A stretch of DNA of 30,547 nt from a virus: positions 1-30,547 of IMG/VR virus record IMGVR_UViG_3300034069_000443; one strand, 5' to 3'. The notes below the pieces were generated by a model. It was not told the origin of the DNA. It did no database searches and saw only the letters and a program-made list of their open reading frames with translations. Shown here piece by piece: positions 15,062 to 23,492 of the stretch. The position numbers were made by a program, and so were the translations under genes. The first letter of the stretch is position 1; every line of letters starts with the position of its first letter.

Positions 15062-15605
15062 AAGAATTATAATCGCTGCCGGAATTCTTATCATTATTAG
15101 CTTATTAGTCGGATCAGGATATTATTTCTATCATAAAGGAATACAAGATTCTACGATTCCACTTCAGCCGATAGCTAAAGTCGATTTTAATTCCGTTAAA
15201 CAAGCGCAGCAATTATCTAAAAAATATACTTCAGATTCTGATACGAAAGAAGTAGTACATTATATAGAAAAAGCTAAGGAAAAACCGCCTACTTTTCAAT
15301 ATATAACGGCTTCGCAAGCAGAATCTGATAAAAAAGCTAATTATCTTTCCAGTAAAAATAAGGCAGATTATGTATTAAAGGAAACTGAATCCGATAATAA
15401 TATAATTAATAACAATTATTATGCTATTAAACAAGAAAAGAAAAATCGTATCGGTGGCGGTATAGCCGTCATTAATAACGATATTTACGGTACGATTCAT
15501 TATCAACGCGATCGGTTAAGAGTCGAAGCCTTTAAGAGTATAACTAATCCTAAAGGTAAGAAATTAGACGGCGCAGCAGTATCGTATGACTTTGTTAAGT
15601 TTTAA
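15042..15605 (+). CDS. N-terminally membrane-anchored protein at the end of the lysis cassette
   Basis: 187 aa, TM helix IIIAAGILIIISLLVGSGYYF near the N-terminus, hydrophilic remainder ending in ..SYDFVKF. Overlaps the amidase gene by 20 nt. Confidence 0.5.
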   Translation: MLQLLNKRIIIAAGILIIISLLVGSGYYFYHKGIQDSTIPLQPIAKVDFNSVKQAQQLSKKYTSDSDTKEVVHYIEKAKEKPPTFQYITASQAESDKKANYLSSKNKADYVLKETESDNNIINNNYYAIKQEKKNRIGGGIAVINNDIYGTIHYQRDRLRVEAFKSITNPKGKKLDGAAVSYDFVKF

Positions 15606-15674
15606 ATAACATAATAATTCATTCATCATCAGCCGCAGTATTTAATACTGTTGACTATATATTTCTTTAAGAAA

Positions 15675-15710
15675 AGCGACTAAGGATTAATTTTCCTAGT
15701 CGCTTTTTTT
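15675..15710. terminator. bidirectional intrinsic terminator closing the late operon
   Basis: GCGACTAAGGA / TCCTAGTCGC stem followed by T7 on the plus strand. On the minus strand the same stem is followed by TTTTCTT. Confidence 0.75.
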
Positions 15711-15740
15711 GTCTTTTCTTATACTAATTTAGGTAAAAGT

Positions 15741-16386
15741 ACTTTGGCCGTATTGACATCGACGCCTGAAAGGCGTATCAAACATAGGCACTAAGCAACG
15801 GCTTCGGCGCATAGTATCCCCAGTAAAAATTATTTAAATAAAAATTTATTTAACTTTACTGAGGAATACTATACATTATCAAACACAGTTTACTGAAGAA
15901 TCCGTATCCGTATGCCCTATTTATAGCCGGTATTCTACTACCGTATATATTGTTACGCGTCTTAATCCATGCCCTACGTATCGTATCATTACTGATACGT
16001 CTATATAATCCCGCCACTTTCGCAGCTGCTAGAATCGAAATCTAGCGATTAAACCTTACCCATTGTAGCTGATTTATCCGCTATTTCATCGCTAAGCGGA
16101 ATGGGCGTCGCTACATCTTCTACCCTTTAGGGGTTATATAGCTTGAAATAGGTACGCTGGTATAATCCCCGTGCATTTATTGCGGTGGCTGTACGAAACC
16201 CTAGGCGAAACTATTACAATCGCTTTCCTTTATATAGCGCTGGCAGCGCTTTATTTACTTAGTAAATAATTCCGGATCTGTTTTAAGCAGCTATCCGGCT
16301 AGCTGGCTGCATGATTCTATTTTTACCCTATGCAGCGGGGCAACAAAAAAAGCATAGCCCATAAGATATATTTTTAATATCTTAGC
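15741..16386. ncRNA. ORF-free, GC-elevated, hairpin-dense block; candidate large structured RNA (strand and ends unresolved)
   Basis: No ORF >=60 aa in six frames. Many short GC-rich helices. Candidate plus-strand promoters TTGACA-17-TATCAA (15753-15781) and TGgTATAAT (16158-16166). Confidence 0.25.
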
Positions 16387-16516
16387 TATGCTAAACAAGT
16401 ACCCTTTTTATAGAGTAAAAACAGTTTATATAGTTGCATTAACTACTGTTTATATGCTATAATAAATGTACAAACTAACAAGTTAAACAAGTGCTGTGGG
16501 GTACTTGTTTAGCATA
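16387..16516. repeat. 18-bp perfect inverted repeat flanking a 94-bp promoter-bearing spacer
   Basis: TATGCTAAACAAGTACCC (16387-16404) is the exact reverse complement of GGGTACTTGTTTAGCATA (16499-16516). Confidence 0.9.
16434..16463 (+). promoter_or_regulatory. sigma-70-type promoter with extended -10
   Basis: TTGCAT (16434-16439), 18-nt spacer, TGcTATAAT (16455-16463). Confidence 0.55.
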
Positions 16517-16560
16517 TGCCTTTCAATTCTACGTCAATAGAATCGATAGGCTTTTTTTTT
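16470..16560 (+). ncRNA. candidate ~90-nt small RNA
   Basis: Bounded by the promoter at 16434-16463 and a terminator at 16518-16560. No ORF. Internal 9-bp hairpin TAAACAAGT/ACTTGTTTA (16484-16511). Confidence 0.45.
16518..16560 (+). terminator. intrinsic terminator
   Basis: GCCTTTCAATTCTA / TAGAATCGATAGGC stem (2 mismatches) followed by T9 (16552-16560). Confidence 0.65.
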
Positions 16561-16766
16561 GCACTTTTTATTTATTATTGTGTAAAGATGTATCGTCTTA
16601 TACAAGATATTGAGTTACGAAAATCAATATCGTTATGTATATAATATCATTTCTATTTCATTTTGCCAATAAAATTATTTACGAAGCCTTTATCTAAGCC
16701 ATTAAATACACCCAATGGGCGTATAATTCAATAGTTATCTTTTATTTAAAAGATAAAACTATTAAG

Positions 16767-16798
16767 GAAAAAGCACCAGTATTTTATATGCTGGTGCT
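16767..16798 (-). terminator. intrinsic terminator (minus strand)
   Basis: AGCACCAG (16772-16779) / CTGGTGCT (16791-16798) stem, followed by TTTTT on the minus strand. Confidence 0.6.
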
Positions 16799-16825
16799 TA
16801 TCCTATATCTTTTTTGTACTCATCA

Positions 16826-16858
16826 TCATAATATATCTAATACTGGATAAAGTCAATT
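16826..16858 (-). promoter_or_regulatory. minus-strand promoter, repeat copy A
   Basis: Read on the minus strand: TTGACT (16851-16856) - 17 nt - TATTAT (16828-16833). About 33 bp are a direct repeat of 16964-16995. Confidence 0.5.
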
Positions 16859-16963
16859 ACGTTATGTATCTTTTATTTAATAGAATATATAGTAAGAGGT
16901 CAAGCCAGGATATTAAACCCTGGCTTGTAATCCCTTAATTTTATTACTATTTGTAACCCAACT

Positions 16964-16995
16964 TCATAATATATCTGATAATGGATTATGTCAAT
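16964..16995 (-). promoter_or_regulatory. minus-strand promoter, repeat copy B (overlaps the stop codon of the HTH gene)
   Basis: Read on the minus strand: TTGACA (16989-16994) - 17 nt - TATTAT (16966-16971). Confidence 0.5.
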
Positions 16996-17719
16996 CATCA
17001 TCTTTTAGCTTTTTCATAAACTTATCAATCTCTGATTTTGAAGGCGTTATATATATATTTTTATCTTCAAAATTATTCTTCTTATTCTTCCCTAGATTAT
17101 CAATACTATCGTCAAGCATTTCGGCGGCGTTTACAGCTTCTAATGCTTCGTCATTTTGATTGCCAAACAAATCTTTATACAGTAGATCCATGAAGTTATC
17201 GTTAGGATTTTCTTCTCCTAGTTTTTCGATTCTGTCTTTAAATCGTTTATCTTCTACTTCATTTACTAACCTAACATAGATACTTCTCATAACGTAACTA
17301 GGTGGAATTTCTAATCCCTTTTCTATGCGATCCAAAGTCCTTGCTGGCATGCGTAAGCTAATTGCTAATTCTTCTATAGTAAGACCTAACTCTTCACGCA
17401 AATCTATAATTTCAGGACTTCCCATTAATTGATATTCCAACTCTAAGACAACATCTAATACTAAGGCTTCGGTTAAACTATTATTACATTCATTTTCTAT
17501 TTTATAGAAAAGAATCCAAGTCTTATCATCAAAATCAAGATCAGGATCTTCCAAATCGTACTTTTGCATGACATCATGATTGTAAAACCATTGCGAGATA
17601 GTCCCGTCATAATTACGCGCTATCAAAATAACATCATCATCTTTTAAAATACGATTTGTATACTGTTTTAAAAGTTTAGTATATGCTGGATACGCTGTAC
17701 TTTCTATATTTAATTCCAT
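16991..17719 (-). CDS. XRE-type helix-turn-helix protein (candidate maintenance/lysogeny regulator)
   Basis: 242 aa. Central LREELGLTIEELAISLRMPARTLDRIEKGLEIPPSYV matches the XRE HTH pattern. Acidic C-terminus. Divergent from parA. Confidence 0.6.
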   Translation of the reverse strand: MELNIESTAYPAYTKLLKQYTNRILKDDDVILIARNYDGTISQWFYNHDVMQKYDLEDPDLDFDDKTWILFYKIENECNNSLTEALVLDVVLELEYQLMGSPEIIDLREELGLTIEELAISLRMPARTLDRIEKGLEIPPSYVMRSIYVRLVNEVEDKRFKDRIEKLGEENPNDNFMDLLYKDLFGNQNDEALEAVNAAEMLDDSIDNLGKNKKNNFEDKNIYITPSKSEIDKFMKKLKDDD

Positions 17720-17888: not shown

Positions 17889-18617
17889 ATGAGTATAGTC
17901 GCATTTATCAATCAAAAAGGCGGCGTCGGTAAATCATTACTAGCTTTTAATATTGGTATGTATTTATCATCTATTAAAAAAAAGAAAATACTGTTTGTTG
18001 ATTTAGACGCGCAAGCCACTTTAACGGATTTAACGATTCCGACGATAGACGTAGAATATACGTTATTTGATTTACTTAAAAGAAAGGGTACTGATCCGAC
18101 TAGTGCAATTATTAGTACGGATAACTTCGATATTATCCCTGGCGACATTCAAGTAGCTGGCTTATCGTCTAAGATTCAAAAGAATAGCTTATTAGATATC
18201 TTAAAAAGCATTAAGAAGAAGTATGATTATATTATCTTAGATTGCACGCCGTCTTTAGGCAGCATGAATATAGCAGCGCTATATGCAGCCGATACTATTA
18301 TTGGTATTGTGAAACCTGATATCGTATCGACTAGAGGATTACAATTACTATCGGATACGATTAGATCGGAAGTATCACAAAGAAGAAAAATAACCGCCGT
18401 TATCGTCAATCAATATAAGAAACGTAAGATATCTGAATTGACTGTACAACTCACGAAGCAAGATTATCCGTTATTGGATACCTTAGTACGCGATTCTTCG
18501 GCACTATCGGAAAGCGCTAGTATATCGCAATCAATCATAGAATATGGAAAAAATAATAACGGCTATAAGGACATCGAAGCCGTTACGGAAGAAATGTTAA
18601 GTAAGGGGATTTTATAA
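17889..18617 (+). CDS. parA: ParA/Soj-family partition ATPase
   Basis: Deviant Walker A INQKGGVGKS at the N-terminus, DLDAQ, IILDCTPSLG. 242 aa. Confidence 0.85.
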   Translation: MSIVAFINQKGGVGKSLLAFNIGMYLSSIKKKKILFVDLDAQATLTDLTIPTIDVEYTLFDLLKRKGTDPTSAIISTDNFDIIPGDIQVAGLSSKIQKNSLLDILKSIKKKYDYIILDCTPSLGSMNIAALYAADTIIGIVKPDIVSTRGLQLLSDTIRSEVSQRRKITAVIVNQYKKRKISELTVQLTKQDYPLLDTLVRDSSALSESASISQSIIEYGKNNNGYKDIEAVTEEMLSKGIL

Positions 18618-19358: not shown

Positions 19359-20951
19359 TTAGCCTTTAATAAGTCGTACATTGAAGACCTTCGCTAAATA
19401 AGAAATTGCTTCCCTAAAATTACAATCCTGTAACATCATCACGCAATTAATAATATCGCTTCCATGCCCTTCGCCGTAGCTTTCACAATCCGGATTAAAG
19501 CAATAATATCGGTAGCCTTCTTTTTCATCGCCGATGATATTGGCGGAATCGTTTGTATCATCATGGAAGATACAGTTAAATAATCCATGATCCGGTACGC
19601 CTAAGAAATCGGCTAGATTATAGCGCTTTACTAAATTCTTAAAAGTAGAGGACGTTAATTTCATACCATTAATAGTATCGTTTACTAGAAAAACAGACTT
19701 TTGACGAATTGCCTTAATGCGTTGGTTATTGATTTTAGATATATCCTTAGTTTTATGATTTTGTACGGCTTTAATAGTCATAGGATACATAGTTAGATAG
19801 TCATTACAAGCGGATTCGATATCGTCTTTGGATTCAGATAATTCATGTACGAAATCATCGATATCGTATCTTACATTATTAGAATCGAAGATAGTTACTT
19901 CGTATTCGTCATAGTCGCCCTTCTTCCATGTAGTACCTGGCATACGTAATACGCGGGCTTTATCGGATACGGCGGTATCGGCTATCTTAATAGTCCTAAC
20001 TAACATATCTTCGGCAGCTTGCCATAATTCGCCATTATTAATAGGGTTAATAGCCCATATACAATGATATCCATTACGCGTATCGGTAATTACAGTCGGT
20101 ACTAATGGAAGGCTATAAATAACTTCTAACATCGCTTCTTTACGTGCAGCGACTTCTTCTAAAGTAAAGTAATTACCTTCTTCGTCTTTACCAGCGTCGA
20201 TATCGATAAATAGATTCCGATACGTCGTAATATCAGACGCCCTACGCTTACCAGCTTTACGGGATTCATTCACTAAGAAGAATGTATTAATAGTATCGCC
20301 GAAGTGGTAGATATCGGCTTTCTTATTATTTAATACTAATTCATTGAAGACTGATAAATGATTAATAGTATCGTCATCTTCAGACAAATATTCAGTAGCT
20401 TCCTTATGGGTATGTATACCATATTGGCTATAATAAGCGTCGGTAAACATAGCGATTGTAGTATCGTCTAACTTTTTATCGATATCGGACTTAAATAACC
20501 AATATGCCAATGGCGTAATACTATAATTTAGCTGCATTACAGCCGGATTCACAAATATAGCCTCATAGGTTACATCGTTATTCGAAATCCATTTATTAAC
20601 CTTGAAGATATTAGCCTTCGTACATCTAGCAAAAAACTTTTTAAAGGCGTCTTTTTTCAAGCCTAATACATCTTGTAAATCAGCTTTTTTCATAGGTACT
20701 TGACGTCGATTAATCGGATCATAGCATTTTAATGTACTATCAGATTTTAAATGCGTGGATACAACTCTTACCAGCTTTAATATATCGCTGGTGGTTAATC
20801 CTTTACTTTCGAAGTCAAAGGCATAGTCTATACTGACTTTAGTACTAAACAACTTCGCGGACTGTAAACGCCCTTCATCTGTTACGTTTGTAGTTTTAGA
20901 TTGGTAATATTTATTATTGTCATCGGCATGGGTGAATATCACATTTTTCAT
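19359..20951 (-). CDS. replication protein: AEP primase-polymerase core with C-terminal CHC2 zinc finger
   Basis: AEP motifs LFIDID (I), TRNGYHCIW (II), RVLRMPGTTWKK (III). C-terminus CIFHDD...YYCFNPDCES..GSDIINCVMMLQDCNFREAISYLA matches DnaG-type zf-CHC2. No Walker A. Confidence 0.75.
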   Translation of the reverse strand: MKNVIFTHADDNNKYYQSKTTNVTDEGRLQSAKLFSTKVSIDYAFDFESKGLTTSDILKLVRVVSTHLKSDSTLKCYDPINRRQVPMKKADLQDVLGLKKDAFKKFFARCTKANIFKVNKWISNNDVTYEAIFVNPAVMQLNYSITPLAYWLFKSDIDKKLDDTTIAMFTDAYYSQYGIHTHKEATEYLSEDDDTINHLSVFNELVLNNKKADIYHFGDTINTFFLVNESRKAGKRRASDITTYRNLFIDIDAGKDEEGNYFTLEEVAARKEAMLEVIYSLPLVPTVITDTRNGYHCIWAINPINNGELWQAAEDMLVRTIKIADTAVSDKARVLRMPGTTWKKGDYDEYEVTIFDSNNVRYDIDDFVHELSESKDDIESACNDYLTMYPMTIKAVQNHKTKDISKINNQRIKAIRQKSVFLVNDTINGMKLTSSTFKNLVKRYNLADFLGVPDHGLFNCIFHDDTNDSANIIGDEKEGYRYYCFNPDCESYGEGHGSDIINCVMMLQDCNFREAISYLAKVFNVRLIKG

Positions 20952-22263: not shown

Positions 22264-22359
22264 GCTGTACCTCATTCTGCTAAAAAGAAGACAAAATTTT
22301 TAATATAATAAAGCGTCATCGATTAACGCTTTCATAAGTTATATTACCTAGTTAGTCAT

Positions 22360-22394
22360 CTTATATTGCAAAATTTTTCATGTATGCAAAATTG
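22360..22394 (-). promoter_or_regulatory. candidate early promoter with two TGCAAAATT repeats (operators?)
   Basis: On the minus strand: TTGCAT (22384-22389) - 18 nt - TATAAG (22360-22365). Direct 9-mers TGCAAAATT at 22367-22375 and 22385-22393 overlap it. Confidence 0.35.
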
Positions 22395-22711
22395 ATATAT
22401 TATACTATTAAATTGCATTTAATGAATAATACAAGTATCGCGCTACAAATCGGCACGATATTATTCGCATTAACTGGCATTATCTATATAAAATTCTCTA
22501 CGTTTACAGTATACCATACTTAGCAACTAAAAAAAAGATAAGTATTTGACTTTTTGATTAATTTACAGAAAAATAGCTATTCTTTTCTTTTAAGCCGGTA
22601 TAAAGTCAGGCTTAAAAGGAAAGCAGCTATTTTATGGGGTACGGATTTTAAATGTATTTGTAACTGGATCATCAACGTCATAGCCGCCGGAAAAATACTT
22701 CAGCTGCAAAA

Positions 22712-22860
22712 CTACATATCTTATATTAGTGTGGATTTGTAATAAATTTTCTAAAAAAGTCAGTATTTATCTATGTTTATCGGCTTTTAGGTGGGGTATG
22801 ATTTATACCCCTTTTACTATCGAAAAGGGTACGAATCGTACCCCTTACATTGTATACAAT
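22712..22860. repeat. 149-bp repeat, copy 1
   Basis: Aligns without length change to 22998-23146. Contains TGTGGATTT, hairpins GGGGTAT-gattt-ATACCCC and GGGTACG-aat-CGTACCC, and the palindrome ATTGTATACAAT. Confidence 0.9.
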
Positions 22861-22997
22861 TAAAATCTGATATCTAATCCGGCGGCTATCTTCTTCTTTT
22901 AAGCCTATGGATTAACCTCTACCAATAGTATTACCAGCTACGATATTATTATTGACTACGGCAGCTAGAATATTTTTTAACAGCCGTAATTACAAAT

Positions 22998-23146
22998 CTA
23001 CATATCTTATATTAGTGTGGATTTGTATAAAATTTTCAAACAAATGCAGTATTTATCTATGTTTATAGCGTTTTAGGTGGGGTACGAATCATACCCCTTT
23101 TGCTACCAAAAAGGGTATCATTTATACCCTTTACATTGTATACAAT
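22998..23146. repeat. 149-bp repeat, copy 2
   Basis: First 30 nt are identical to copy 1. Hairpins GGGGTA-cgaatca-TACCCC and AGGGTAT-cattt-ATACCCT. Same terminal palindrome. Confidence 0.9.
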
Positions 23147-23151
23147 CTAAT

Positions 23152-23280
23152 TATACATATATCGCCGCCATTATTCTTATCAGATATTTAATCTAAACTA
23201 AACACAAAAGCCGTACTTTTAATACACTTAGTACGCTTATATATTGAAGGGATACATAACAATATACATATATCGCCGCC
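23152..23280. repeat. 18-bp direct repeat pair TATACATATATCGCCGCC
   Basis: Perfect copies at 23152-23169 and 23263-23280. Confidence 0.85.
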
Positions 23281-23412
23281 GATAACTTTTTTAATCACAT
23301 TTTCATTATCAGTATTATCATTAATAGATATAGATATATAGTATGTACTACCTTCAAAAGAGAATCCTCATACTAGGAAAATGCTAATATTTAAAAACCT
23401 CCTATTAAAGAA

Positions 23413-23477
23413 ATAACTTACCTTCTATTTAAGCGGTTACTCCTTACGCTAATAAATACAAGGTAGGTTATTTTTTT
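23413..23477 (+). terminator. intrinsic terminator in the leader of the late operon
   Basis: 12-bp arms ATAACTTACCTT (23413-23424) / AAGGTAGGTTAT (23460-23471, one G-U) followed by T7. Ends 16 nt before the HNH start. Confidence 0.55.
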
Positions 23478-23492
23478 ACCGATTTAAAAATT

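Follow-up and report, generated by a model that had tools for sequence, protein, structure and literature searches.

The window (the whole 30,547-nt stretch of DNA analysed here) is, as judged from its gene content, the genome of an ~30-kb oral tailed phage-plasmid from an abundant family: it carries parA and a Rep-primase-like gene and no detected integrase, and the similarities of its TerL and Rep-like proteins point to Bacillota. The region under study is a 1.3-kb non-coding block that sits between the lysis genes and parA (17889), near the replication genes; the Rep-like gene (19359-20951), whose RepB-primase-like product has a CHC2 zinc-finger domain, lies ~3 kb off. GC skew of the genome is uninformative. 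The block contains the following features.

15669-15710, either direction: bidirectional terminator, an inverted repeat with an A run on one side and a T run on the other, predicted to stop transcripts of the leftward unit and, arriving from the opposite side, those of the lysis genes
15918-16250, minus strand: throat-1 RNA (Rfam RF03110)
16288-16336, minus strand: a pair of conserved hairpins, 16336-16306 and 16305-16288, in the interval that separates T_L from the match to the Rfam throat-1 model
16345-16391, minus strand: leftward intrinsic terminator T_L, GCAUAGCUAAGAUAU...AUAUCUUAUGGGCUAUGC followed by U7 (16351-16345)
16345-16634, minus strand: predicted leader RNA of the throat-1 unit
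16387-16404, minus strand: left repeat arm, proposed 3' strand of a long-range (antiterminator) helix in the minus-strand leader RNA, on the grounds of the perfect repeat and arm-arm covariation
16391-16387, minus strand: last 5 nt of the left arm, GCAUA, doubling as the bottom of the T_L 5' strand
16434-16463, plus strand: sRNA promoter, with -35 TTGCAT at 16434-16439, an 18-nt spacer and extended -10 TGcTATAAT at 16455-16463
16470-16560, plus strand: sRNA, a predicted ~90-nt non-coding countertranscript recognised by fold, conservation and covariation
16499-16516, minus strand: right repeat arm, proposed 5' strand of the long-range helix (preemptor) in the leader
16669-16641, minus strand: leftward promoter P3, with TTGGCA, a 17-nt spacer and TGaTATTAT, and a predicted start near 16634

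Throat-1, T_L and P3 had all escaped the preliminary description of this DNA. The throat-1 match, at 361.6 bits (gathering score 124.4; E = 8e-105), covers the full model, positions 1-334. To our knowledge, this large, highly structured bacterial RNA has been known from human throat metagenomes only, with no organism, context or function assigned. It adjoins the unit described here in all 11 complete related loci scanned and scores 342-365 bits in 11 relatives, so that throat-1 gains a genomic context in an abundant family of ~30-kb tailed phage-plasmids. A literature search on throat-1 returned nothing relevant, and the RNA is absent from the main text of its 2017 discovery paper. A scan of GTDB genomes with a throat-1 pattern gave two chance matches only (Streptomyces and Latescibacterota), and a second throat-1 pattern search yielded no new loci. 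From the end of the leader to the bidirectional terminator (15710-15669), the leftward unit comprises throat-1 RNA and non-coding sequence only.

The repeat arms, TATGCTAAACAAGTACCC at 16387-16404 and its exact reverse complement at 16499-16516 with 94 bp in between, lie precisely where the preliminary description had placed them. This 18-nt perfect inverted repeat is the longest with a spacer of <=150 nt anywhere in the window, and it exceeds the longest repeat found in all of 200 dinucleotide-preserving shuffles (typically 11-12 nt and at most 16 nt). Allowing <=3 mismatches, the arm motif occurs at these two sites only in 30.5 kb, against an expectation of 0.04. The four copies of an AACAAGT core reported earlier are positioned correctly, and just one more is present in 30.5 kb, but two of the four are not conserved, the copy at 16477 reading AAAAAGT in many relatives and that at 16486 reading AGCAAGT in most. 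A MITE-like element with terminal inverted repeats was considered and rejected: the element is without a target-site duplication and without a second copy in the genome, and its position is identical in all relatives.

A comparison across related phages, as the preliminary description had proposed, finds the full unit in 44 related metagenomic loci (25 distinct sequences), all colinear and in the same orientation; blastn of 15600-17000 against 50,697 phage records gave no match. Nucleotide identity across the unit is 78-83% where that of the ParA gene is ~68-72%, which speaks for selection on the unit. The 18/18 perfection of the repeat is peculiar to this genome. Most relatives have 1-3 non-Watson-Crick positions between the arms, and C replaces T at 16509 in 19 of the 25 distinct relatives. 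The first covariation set comprised 15 sequences, 11 of them retrieved with the left arm as search pattern, and held no double-sided changes in the arm-arm helix; because those 11 had been found through the left arm, the set was enlarged through ParA homologues, independently of the arms. The covariation reported below is based on few independent events among closely related sequences.

The plus-strand small RNA gene

The comparison gives good support to a conserved ~90-nt antisense RNA gene on the plus strand, its predicted transcript being driven by the repeat-flanked promoter. The near-consensus extended -10 promoter recognised in the preliminary description reads as given there, and its TATAAT and upstream TG are invariant, by column in 15 aligned sequences and by inspection in all 25, with a -35 of TTGTAT or TTGCAT among relatives and a spacer of 16-18 nt. 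The predicted RNA is laid out as an unpaired ~12-nt 5' tail, stem-loop SL1, a 4-nt linker and a terminator hairpin (16518-16551) followed by T9 (16552-16560). The stem and T9 terminator had thus been placed correctly; the other hairpin is likewise present but was undersized at 9 bp, and comprises 14 pairs including G.U (16482-16495 with 16500-16513). The right arm, read on the plus strand, provides the 3' strand of SL1 and falls within the region complementary between leader and sRNA.

The fold of the entire 93-nt RNA has an energy of -30.5 kcal/mol (z = -5.6), and both the two-hairpin fold (identical in 25/25 distinct relatives) and the T9 run (invariant in 24/25 variants) are kept. Pairing holds in 94.5% of cells on the plus strand versus 79.2% for the minus-strand mirror structure, and the terminator stem contains four covarying pairs, with G.U pairs confined to the plus strand. 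The SL1 loop is hypervariable, with 14 loop variants among 25 sequences. As previously described, the transcript has no ORF of its own: the plus-strand ORFs from 16491 and 16516 run through the terminator, and many relatives lack the ATG at 16516, reading ATACGCC instead. Coding potential of these two ORFs and of a 10-aa minus-strand ORF was rejected on account of unconserved start codons or lengths and of indels. The evident target of the sRNA would be the opposite-strand leader RNA.

The leftward unit and its terminator

P3 scores 10/12 with TG in the promoter scan, and its -10 with TG and a -35-like hexamer are retained in relatives whose flanks differ. It converges with the sRNA promoter, from which it is ~165 bp apart, and a leftward terminator at 16797-16766 would, by its sequence, insulate it from transcription further upstream. 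The predicted leader is complementary to the sRNA throughout 16560-16470 and folds with z = -6.4. The leftward RNA carries no conserved ORF or other evident product. Its sole AUG ORF within the leader begins on the minus strand at 16514 and spans 10 aa here and 12-22 aa in the relatives read, with a poorly spaced Shine-Dalgarno sequence, and a search for a type I toxin-antitoxin arrangement found no conserved small hydrophobic toxin ORF on the leader.

The T_L hairpin folds at -16.8 kcal/mol and is followed by an invariant U tract; on the minus strand 99.4% of its outer stem is paired, with a series that runs from A-U through G.U to G-C. Taken together, T_L and the two hairpins downstream of it are 99.7% paired on the minus strand versus 96.0% on the plus strand. 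The two downstream hairpins, 100% paired on the minus strand, show G.U pairs on the minus strand only (16336-16306) and two covarying pairs (16305-16288), and probably extend the throat-1 transcript at its 5' end. A candidate throat-1 promoter, TTGCCC-18-TAGAAT (16343-16314), is weak at 9/12: its -10 is mostly conserved, reading CAGAAT in some relatives, and its -35 is unconserved (GTATCC, TTGTAC or TTTCCC in several lineages). As hairpin 16336-16306 encloses this only candidate and behaves as minus-strand RNA, transcription of throat-1 would come from upstream.

Pairing between the repeat arms

The two arms covary. Six pairs show changes in both partners, where shuffles give 1.0 (0/500), and the double-sided changes trace to about four independent events: U-A to U.G to C-G, A-U to C-G, C-G to A-U, and a compensated 1-nt insertion in both arms (lineage L052). 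Arm-arm pairing holds in ~97% of cells on the minus strand (97.0-97.3%) versus ~90% on the plus strand (89.8%), the arm mismatches of most relatives being A.C on the plus strand and G.U on the minus strand. In 22/25 variants the arm duplex has its greater stability as minus-strand RNA, with a mean of -25.9 versus -21.8 kcal/mol; two single-lineage changes (L025; L032/L036) give G.U on the plus strand and not on the minus strand. An inner imperfect palindrome (16399-16425 with 16445-16471), which spans the sRNA -35, was also considered as a conserved helix and set aside as weakly supported, being disrupted in 6/15 relatives.

The long-range helix overlaps T_L over a short stretch, 5 nt or 7 nt with a 2-bp extension. 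Nucleotide 16389, common to both helices, is compensated in the long-range helix in one lineage (L041) and in T_L in another (L020). In silico, the two helices look mutually exclusive in folds made without the U tract: 10/10 leaders have the full long-range helix in their minimum-energy fold with 0-3 of the 7 bottom terminator pairs left, a state favoured by the small margin of 0.4-5.4 kcal/mol. Masking the stretch complementary to the sRNA gives 7/7 terminator pairs in 10/10 leaders. In folds that take in the U tract, 4/10 leaders, that of the window among them, keep 5/7 bottom terminator pairs together with a shortened long-range helix, and one leader (L014) adopts the full terminator with the long-range helix absent. 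Since folds with the U tract show both structures, the long-range helix and T_L might coexist. Covariation at helix position 3, inside the T_L overlap, indicates that, some of the time at least, the full helix is formed at the cost of the terminator. The repeat arms probably form an RNA helix that competes with the leader terminator.

Proposed control of throat-1 RNA

These features could make the element the control region of the throat-1 transcription unit, working as a countertranscript-driven transcriptional attenuator as in pT181 and pIP501, the reading that fits best and to which we give an even chance. Transcription from P3 (16669-16641) would start a leader RNA near 16634, of which the sRNA-complementary part, including the right arm, would be made first and would fold locally into a hairpin, the complement of SL1. 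The left arm would emerge ~110 nt on and pair with the right arm in a long-range helix of 17-20 bp, taking GCAUA(GC), the bottom of the T_L 5' strand (16391-16345). With its base so occupied, T_L would be unable to close beside U7, and RNA polymerase would read through into throat-1 (16250-15918). The ~90-nt plus-strand sRNA (16470-16560), made from the strong promoter between the arms and a perfect complement of the leader, may bind the nascent leader first, by a loop-loop contact at SL1 and then as a full duplex; in that event the right arm would be sequestered, T_L would form and transcription would stop at 16345. The net outcome would be negative, dosage-dependent control of throat-1 RNA. 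We infer the existence of both transcripts, the supply of throat-1 by read-through and a causal role of sRNA binding in termination.

Countertranscript-driven transcriptional attenuation operates in the Gram-positive plasmids pT181 (RNAI/II), pIP501 (RNAIII) and pAMbeta1. The locus resembles these systems in having an antisense gene of the same kind (a constitutive RNA of ~85-140 nt with its own promoter and terminator, here predicted) inside the leader on the opposite strand, and an intrinsic terminator in that leader, downstream of the antisense target. It further resembles them in stem-loops suited to loop-loop initiation and in a low-GC, Bacillota-like host range, and may do so in an upstream preemptor, within the antisense target, that would pair with the terminator 5' strand and whose capture by the antisense RNA would free the terminator; the class is discussed in PMC2879508 and PMC1935000. 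It differs from pT181 and pIP501 in that no replication-initiator mRNA lies downstream, the product being the structured non-coding throat-1 RNA and the Rep-like gene standing apart, 3 kb away. The short preemptor-terminator overlap (5-7 nt) and the tailed phage-plasmid replicon are further differences, as is the lack of sequence or Rfam kinship to ctRNA families: a Rfam scan of 16250-17000 at E up to 10 (C4, ctRNA_pT181, ctRNA_pND324, ctRNA_pGA1, CopA and RNAI) gave chance matches only, mostly to miRNA-precursor models reflecting the long hairpin. Its non-coding regulated product would make the unit unlike any characterised attenuator of this type, and antisense-driven attenuation of a non-coding RNA instead of an mRNA would, if true, be a new use of a classical mechanism. 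Throat-1 thereby gains a regulatory context as well, in which a conserved leader, terminator and countertranscript are arranged like a plasmid copy-control attenuator, and the arrangement of the 1.3-kb block gives concrete predictions on RNA ends, sRNA-dependent termination, and replication and incompatibility.

The same features would also fit two overlapping but separate RNA genes that involve no attenuation, which we consider possible though on the unlikely side. A ~290-nt leftward RNA (16634-16345) would then always end at T_L, throat-1 would have its own promoter (16343-16314), the arm helix would be a structure stacked on the terminator, and the sRNA would act by duplex formation and RNase III decay, by transcriptional interference, or in trans on a host target. 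Folds with the U tract agree with this, as the window and three relatives keep a 13-pair shortened helix beside 5/7 terminator pairs, and so do the 9/12 promoter-like site between T_L and throat-1, with its mostly conserved -10, and the mere ~165 bp between the facing promoters. Yet that site has an unconserved -35 and a variable -10 and falls within a hairpin with the behaviour of minus-strand RNA, the long-range helix covaries at position 3 within the T_L overlap, and a separate leftward RNA would be one with no conserved ORF or other evident product. That the arms act as DNA, whether as paired protein sites that loop or occlude the sRNA promoter or as a cruciform or origin-type palindrome of a plasmid replicon, seems improbable to us. 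They do flank the promoter symmetrically (at about -70 and +35), the inner imperfect palindrome covers the -35, the locus lies between the lysis genes and parA beside replication genes, and co-variation of the arms would be expected of symmetric protein sites too. A single arm, however, is not palindromic, the arm motif is absent elsewhere in 30.5 kb, the inner palindrome is broken in 6/15 relatives, and the arms differ at position 8 in 19/25 and often at 3 or 17, changes that are G.U as minus-strand RNA and plain mismatches as DNA. An operator for the adjacent HTH protein was rejected in particular, the HTH gene (16991-17719) being missing from many relatives that retain the unit.

Two further readings came from the preliminary description. 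Its proposal of an antisense sRNA is supported by the invariant -10 and TG, the covarying terminator stem and the fold common to 25/25 sequences; the likeness to P1 c4 that it drew, with the right-arm segment of the sRNA pairing to the left arm on plus-strand read-through transcripts as an immunity RNA, fares poorly, and we hold it to be very improbable. In this window 16499-16516 of the sRNA is indeed perfectly complementary to the plus-strand copy of 16387-16404, but in most relatives the plus-strand pairing has A.C mismatches, the plus strand upstream is antisense to throat-1 and lies behind the bidirectional terminator, the promoter scan found no strong plus-strand promoter there, no plus-strand gene lies between the sRNA terminator and parA at 17889, and Rfam C4 gives no match at E up to 10. 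P1/P7 c4 is similarly a small phage-plasmid RNA that acts by base pairing in an immunity/maintenance region; it is cut from the transcript bearing its targets and blocks icd/ant on the same strand, whereas the sRNA here has its own promoter and terminator, an opposite-strand target and no same-strand gene downstream. The other proposal, a promoter made invertible by a recombinase that acts on 16405-16498 between the arms, has next to no probability left. Invertible promoter switches such as fimS, hin and the phase-variable promoters of Bacteroides and Clostridioides likewise have inverted repeats around a promoter, and in this one genome a perfect 18-bp repeat does bracket a strong one. Here, by contrast, all 44 full-unit loci (25 distinct sequences), from many samples, have one orientation, a scan of 2.9 million viral contigs with a flipped-junction pattern gave no match, and in nearly all relatives the arms, whose behaviour is that of an RNA helix, are imperfect. 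At only 94 bp, the segment is shorter than any invertible segment known to us. The absence of an encoded invertase, already remarked upon, was upheld for the 20 recombinase-sized ORFs scanned with Pfam (10 also with PHROGs), none of which has a recombinase domain, though a host-encoded enzyme is conceivable. Nor would a flipped promoter fire leftward to 15675 as suggested, since it would hit T_L (16391-16345) within ~80 nt.

Beyond attenuation itself, leader, countertranscript and throat-1 might together constitute an RNA-based replication, copy-number and incompatibility module of the oral phage-plasmid family, a speculative extension that we think unlikely. In it, throat-1 would serve as a primer, an origin RNA or some other RNA coupled to replication, an RNA I-like countertranscript would fix its dosage, and the SL1 loop would define incompatibility or immunity groups. 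A likeness is offered by ColE1, in which RNA I is antisense to the 5' part of RNA II, a long structured non-coding transcript; control there goes through refolding of RNA II and not through an intrinsic terminator. In parABS mycobacteriophages, a reverse-direction non-coding RNA immediately upstream of parA, between the virion genes and parABS, is reported as necessary and sufficient for plasmid-prophage replication, and its position and orientation match those of the throat-1 unit (PMC7157519); in the parts of that paper considered, these RNAs have no antisense partner described. Both comparisons are limited by the RepB-primase-like protein with its CHC2 zinc-finger domain encoded here, priming of replication by throat-1 being only hypothetical. 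If true, the module would provide a first function for the orphan throat-1 RNA, and RNA-based prophage origins like those of parABS mycobacteriophages would then occur in Bacillota-type phages as well.

The small RNA gene and its relatives

The arms of the inverted repeat (16387-16404, left, and 16499-16516, right) are 18 nt long, 100% complementary by repeat finder and separated by 94 nt, forming the longest short-range inverted repeat of the window; the longest repeat in 200 dinucleotide-preserving shuffles was mostly 11-12 nt and at most 16 nt. Allowing up to three mismatches, the arm sequence occurs at only these two sites in the window. The promoter (TTGCAT, 18-nt spacer, TGcTATAAT, 16434-16463), the terminator (stem 16518-16551, T9 16552-16560) and the four AACAAGT cores, clustered within 116 bp with five copies in the whole window, likewise agree with the preliminary description. 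Its 9-bp hairpin does use the right arm, although the stem comprises 14 pairs rather than 9 (designated SL1). The predicted RNA (16470-16562, designated sRNA) folds into a ~12-nt unpaired 5′ tail, SL1 and the terminator (–30.5 kcal/mol, z = –5.6).

Relatives were retrieved first by scanning viral, metagenome and genome collections for exact patterns, and then via ParA homologues and their contigs, independently of the arms. Both searches together gave 58 loci, 44 of which contain the full unit in 25 distinct versions. Nucleotide identity across the unit is 78-83% in relatives whose ParA gene is ~68-72% identical.

The sRNA fold is alike in 25/25 variants. The –10 element TATAAT and the TG preceding it do not vary, the –35 element is TTGTAT or TTGCAT at a spacing of 16-18 nt, and the T9 run is unchanged in 24/25 variants, with T7 in one lineage (L041). 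The two-hairpin structure pairs 94.5% of alignment cells on the + strand versus 79.2% for the minus-strand mirror structure. Four terminator pairs are changed on both sides, with a covariation score above 500/500 shuffles; SL1 covaries as well: A-U becomes C-G in L032 and L036 and U.G in L018, and AAAC/GUUU is replaced by AGC/G(U)CU. A search of described RNA families, including C4, ctRNAs, CopA and RNAI, returned no match to the sRNA unit. These patterns make it very probable that the sRNA gene is real. The SL1 loop (16495-16499 in the window) has 14 sequences among the 25 variants (L001-L057) while the stems are conserved, as would be expected of elements that determine incompatibility or immunity specificity, since a cis-antisense loop and its target loop change together automatically.

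The predicted leftward leader and its possible alternative helices

The unit sits in a 1.4-kb non-coding block (15606-16990) with lysis genes on one side and parA on the other. The minus strand of this block carries a promoter, the sRNA complement, both arms and a terminator, and the sRNA is likely, on prediction, to be the cis-antisense partner of the resulting leader (16634-16345). The structured throat-1 RNA lies downstream and adjoins the unit in 11/11 complete loci scanned.

Minus-strand features of the non-coding block
16669..16641, minus strand: P3, near-consensus leftward promoter from a promoter scan (TTGGCA, 17-nt spacer, TGaTATTAT)
16391-16345, minus strand: T_L, intrinsic terminator directly past the left arm, GCAUAGCUAAGAUAU...AUAUCUUAUGGGCUAUGC then U7; hairpin –16.8 kcal/mol
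16391-16387, minus strand: GCAUA, bottom of the T_L 5′ strand, belonging to the left arm
16250-15918, minus strand: throat-1 RNA (RF03110), Rfam full-length match, 361.6 bits (threshold 124.4)

The initial set, 15 sequences in which the arm-arm helix has no both-sided change, was biased in that 11/15 had been retrieved using the left arm as search pattern; the set was hence enlarged to 25. Here, 97.0% of arm-arm cells are paired on the minus strand, and six pairs are changed on both sides versus 1.0 in shuffles (0/500), representing ~4 events. The comparison across relatives called for in the preliminary description thus finds the unit conserved and the arms co-varying, whereas the perfect 18/18 repeat without an indel belongs to the window alone among the genomes compared.

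Both-sided changes in the arm-arm helix
Position 3: U-A to U.G (6 sequences) to C-G (L041)
Position 11: A-U to C-G (L032, L036)
Position 17: C-G to A-U (L001/L045)
L052: 1-nt insertion in both arms

Nucleotide 16509 is C in 19/25 variants, pairing with G in SL1, and the opposing left-arm base stays A, so that the pair is A.C in + strand RNA and U.G in minus-strand RNA. In 22/25 variants the minus-strand form of the arm duplex is the more stable one (mean –25.9 versus –21.8 kcal/mol); two lineages carry an arm change giving G.U on the + strand instead. This evidence that the arm helix prefers minus-strand RNA is suggestive, not decisive. Nucleotide 16389 belongs to both the arm-arm helix and T_L; 18 sequences have A there and 7 have G. 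This G forms G.U in both helices for 6/7, with full compensation in L041 (arm-arm helix) and L020 (T_L).

Folded without the U tract, the 10 full-length leaders have minimum-energy structures with 15-16/16 arm-arm pairs and 0-3/7 bottom T_L pairs, the arm-arm state being favoured by 0.4-5.4 kcal/mol; masking the sRNA target completes T_L in 10/10. With the U tract included, 4/10 leaders (the window among them) hold a 13-pair arm helix together with 5/7 T_L pairs and the L014 leader forms full T_L and no arm helix, so the two helices may coexist. In full-leader minimum-energy folds, the A9 run complementary to the sRNA T9 (16552-16560) pairs with the U7 of T_L (16345-16351), a contact that may be an artefact of the folding or may contribute to anti-termination.

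On the minus strand, two hairpins downstream of T_L (16336-16306 and 16305-16288) show 100% pairing; the former has G.U pairs on that strand only and the latter two covarying pairs. The only candidate throat-1 promoter (TTGCCC-18-TAGAAT) is enclosed in hairpin 16336-16306 and its –35 is not conserved, which together favour upstream transcription that reads through T_L into throat-1. Since the Rfam model covers neither of these conserved hairpins, the real throat-1 RNA probably exceeds the model length of 334 nt, extending 5′ to 16336 and, probably, 3′ to 15710 at the bidirectional terminator.

Proposed attenuation and competing readings

By analogy, the unit may be a countertranscript-driven attenuator of throat-1, a reading we hold at close to even odds. 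A constitutive antisense sRNA would be encoded inside the leader on the opposite strand, a preemptor segment (the right arm) within its target would pair with the T_L 5′ strand, and antisense binding would free the T_L terminator. In pT181, pIP501 and pAMbeta1, an antisense RNA lies within the leader, a preemptor competes with a terminator, and binding releases the terminator. The predicted anatomy of the window unit matches this class (treated in PMC2879508 and PMC1935000), differing in that the regulated product is a 334-nt structured RNA instead of rep mRNA.

Separate RNA genes with no attenuation are a less probable alternative, and arms acting at the DNA level, as protein sites or an origin palindrome, are improbable. 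Neither of the two mechanisms in the preliminary description is favoured. A c4-like pairing of the sRNA with the left arm on the same strand is very improbable, given no + strand target gene, the A.C mismatches in + strand pairing and no C4 match. Inversion of the promoter segment is less credible still: all 44/44 full-unit loci are colinear with the window, and the flipped-junction signature has 0 matches in 2.9 million viral contigs. Because T_L lies past the left arm, a flipped promoter, proposed to fire leftward to 15675, would meet it within ~80 nt. The initial observation is confirmed and its interpretation partly supported, in that the sRNA appears real and antisense, neither invertible nor c4-like.

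In a further reading, possible but rather unlikely, leader, countertranscript and throat-1 would act as one RNA-based module for replication, copy number and incompatibility, its specificity set by the variable SL1 loop. According to PMC7157519, parABS mycobacteriophages without repA express a non-coding RNA directly upstream of parA in reverse direction; the paper describes this RNA as both necessary and sufficient for the prophage to replicate and likens it to ColE1 RNA II and RNA I. The throat-1 unit shares its position and orientation. Even if this reading is wrong, throat-1 is placed on a replicon and linked to a predicted transcription unit and to a regulator that can be tested.

Genome context

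The window encodes tailed-phage sheath, baseplate, portal, protease, TerL and an Amidase_3 endolysin, as well as ParA and a small protein with a match to sigma-70 region 4; one further protein has weak, sub-threshold RepB-primase and CHC2 zinc-finger matches. No integrase or recombinase was detected among the window proteins scanned, consistent with the earlier statement that no invertase is encoded. The window is classed as a phage-plasmid. ParA homologues (216 at E <= 1e-40) indicate an abundant phage family and reside mostly on 28-31 kb contigs, as do most related loci, the same size as the window, which thus probably represents the entire genome of a myovirus-like phage-plasmid in human oral samples. 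A search of GTDB species representatives yielded no cultured host.

Besides P3, near-consensus leftward promoter candidates lie at 16994..16966 (TTGACA-17-TATTAT) and, in a 54-nt duplicate of it, at 16856..16828 (TTGACT-17-TATTAT), both on the minus strand, with a leftward terminator at 16797-16766 and a minus-strand hairpin at 16925-16899. The 16856..16828 promoter and this terminator would yield a ~55-nt minus-strand RNA, and L001 has a similar promoter-plus-terminator pair ahead of P3. Between the RNA block and parA, the 242-aa gene at 16991-17719 (minus strand), whose product has a weak XRE-type HTH, is an accessory insertion. The window, L004, L006, L007 and L021 carry it, L001, L005 and L017 lack it, and it went undetected in L016, L018 and L020; many relatives retain the unit without this gene. 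A second gene-poor stretch of ~1.2 kb (22276-23492), holding only short, unconvincing ORFs, lies between leftward early genes and the HNH/terminase module.
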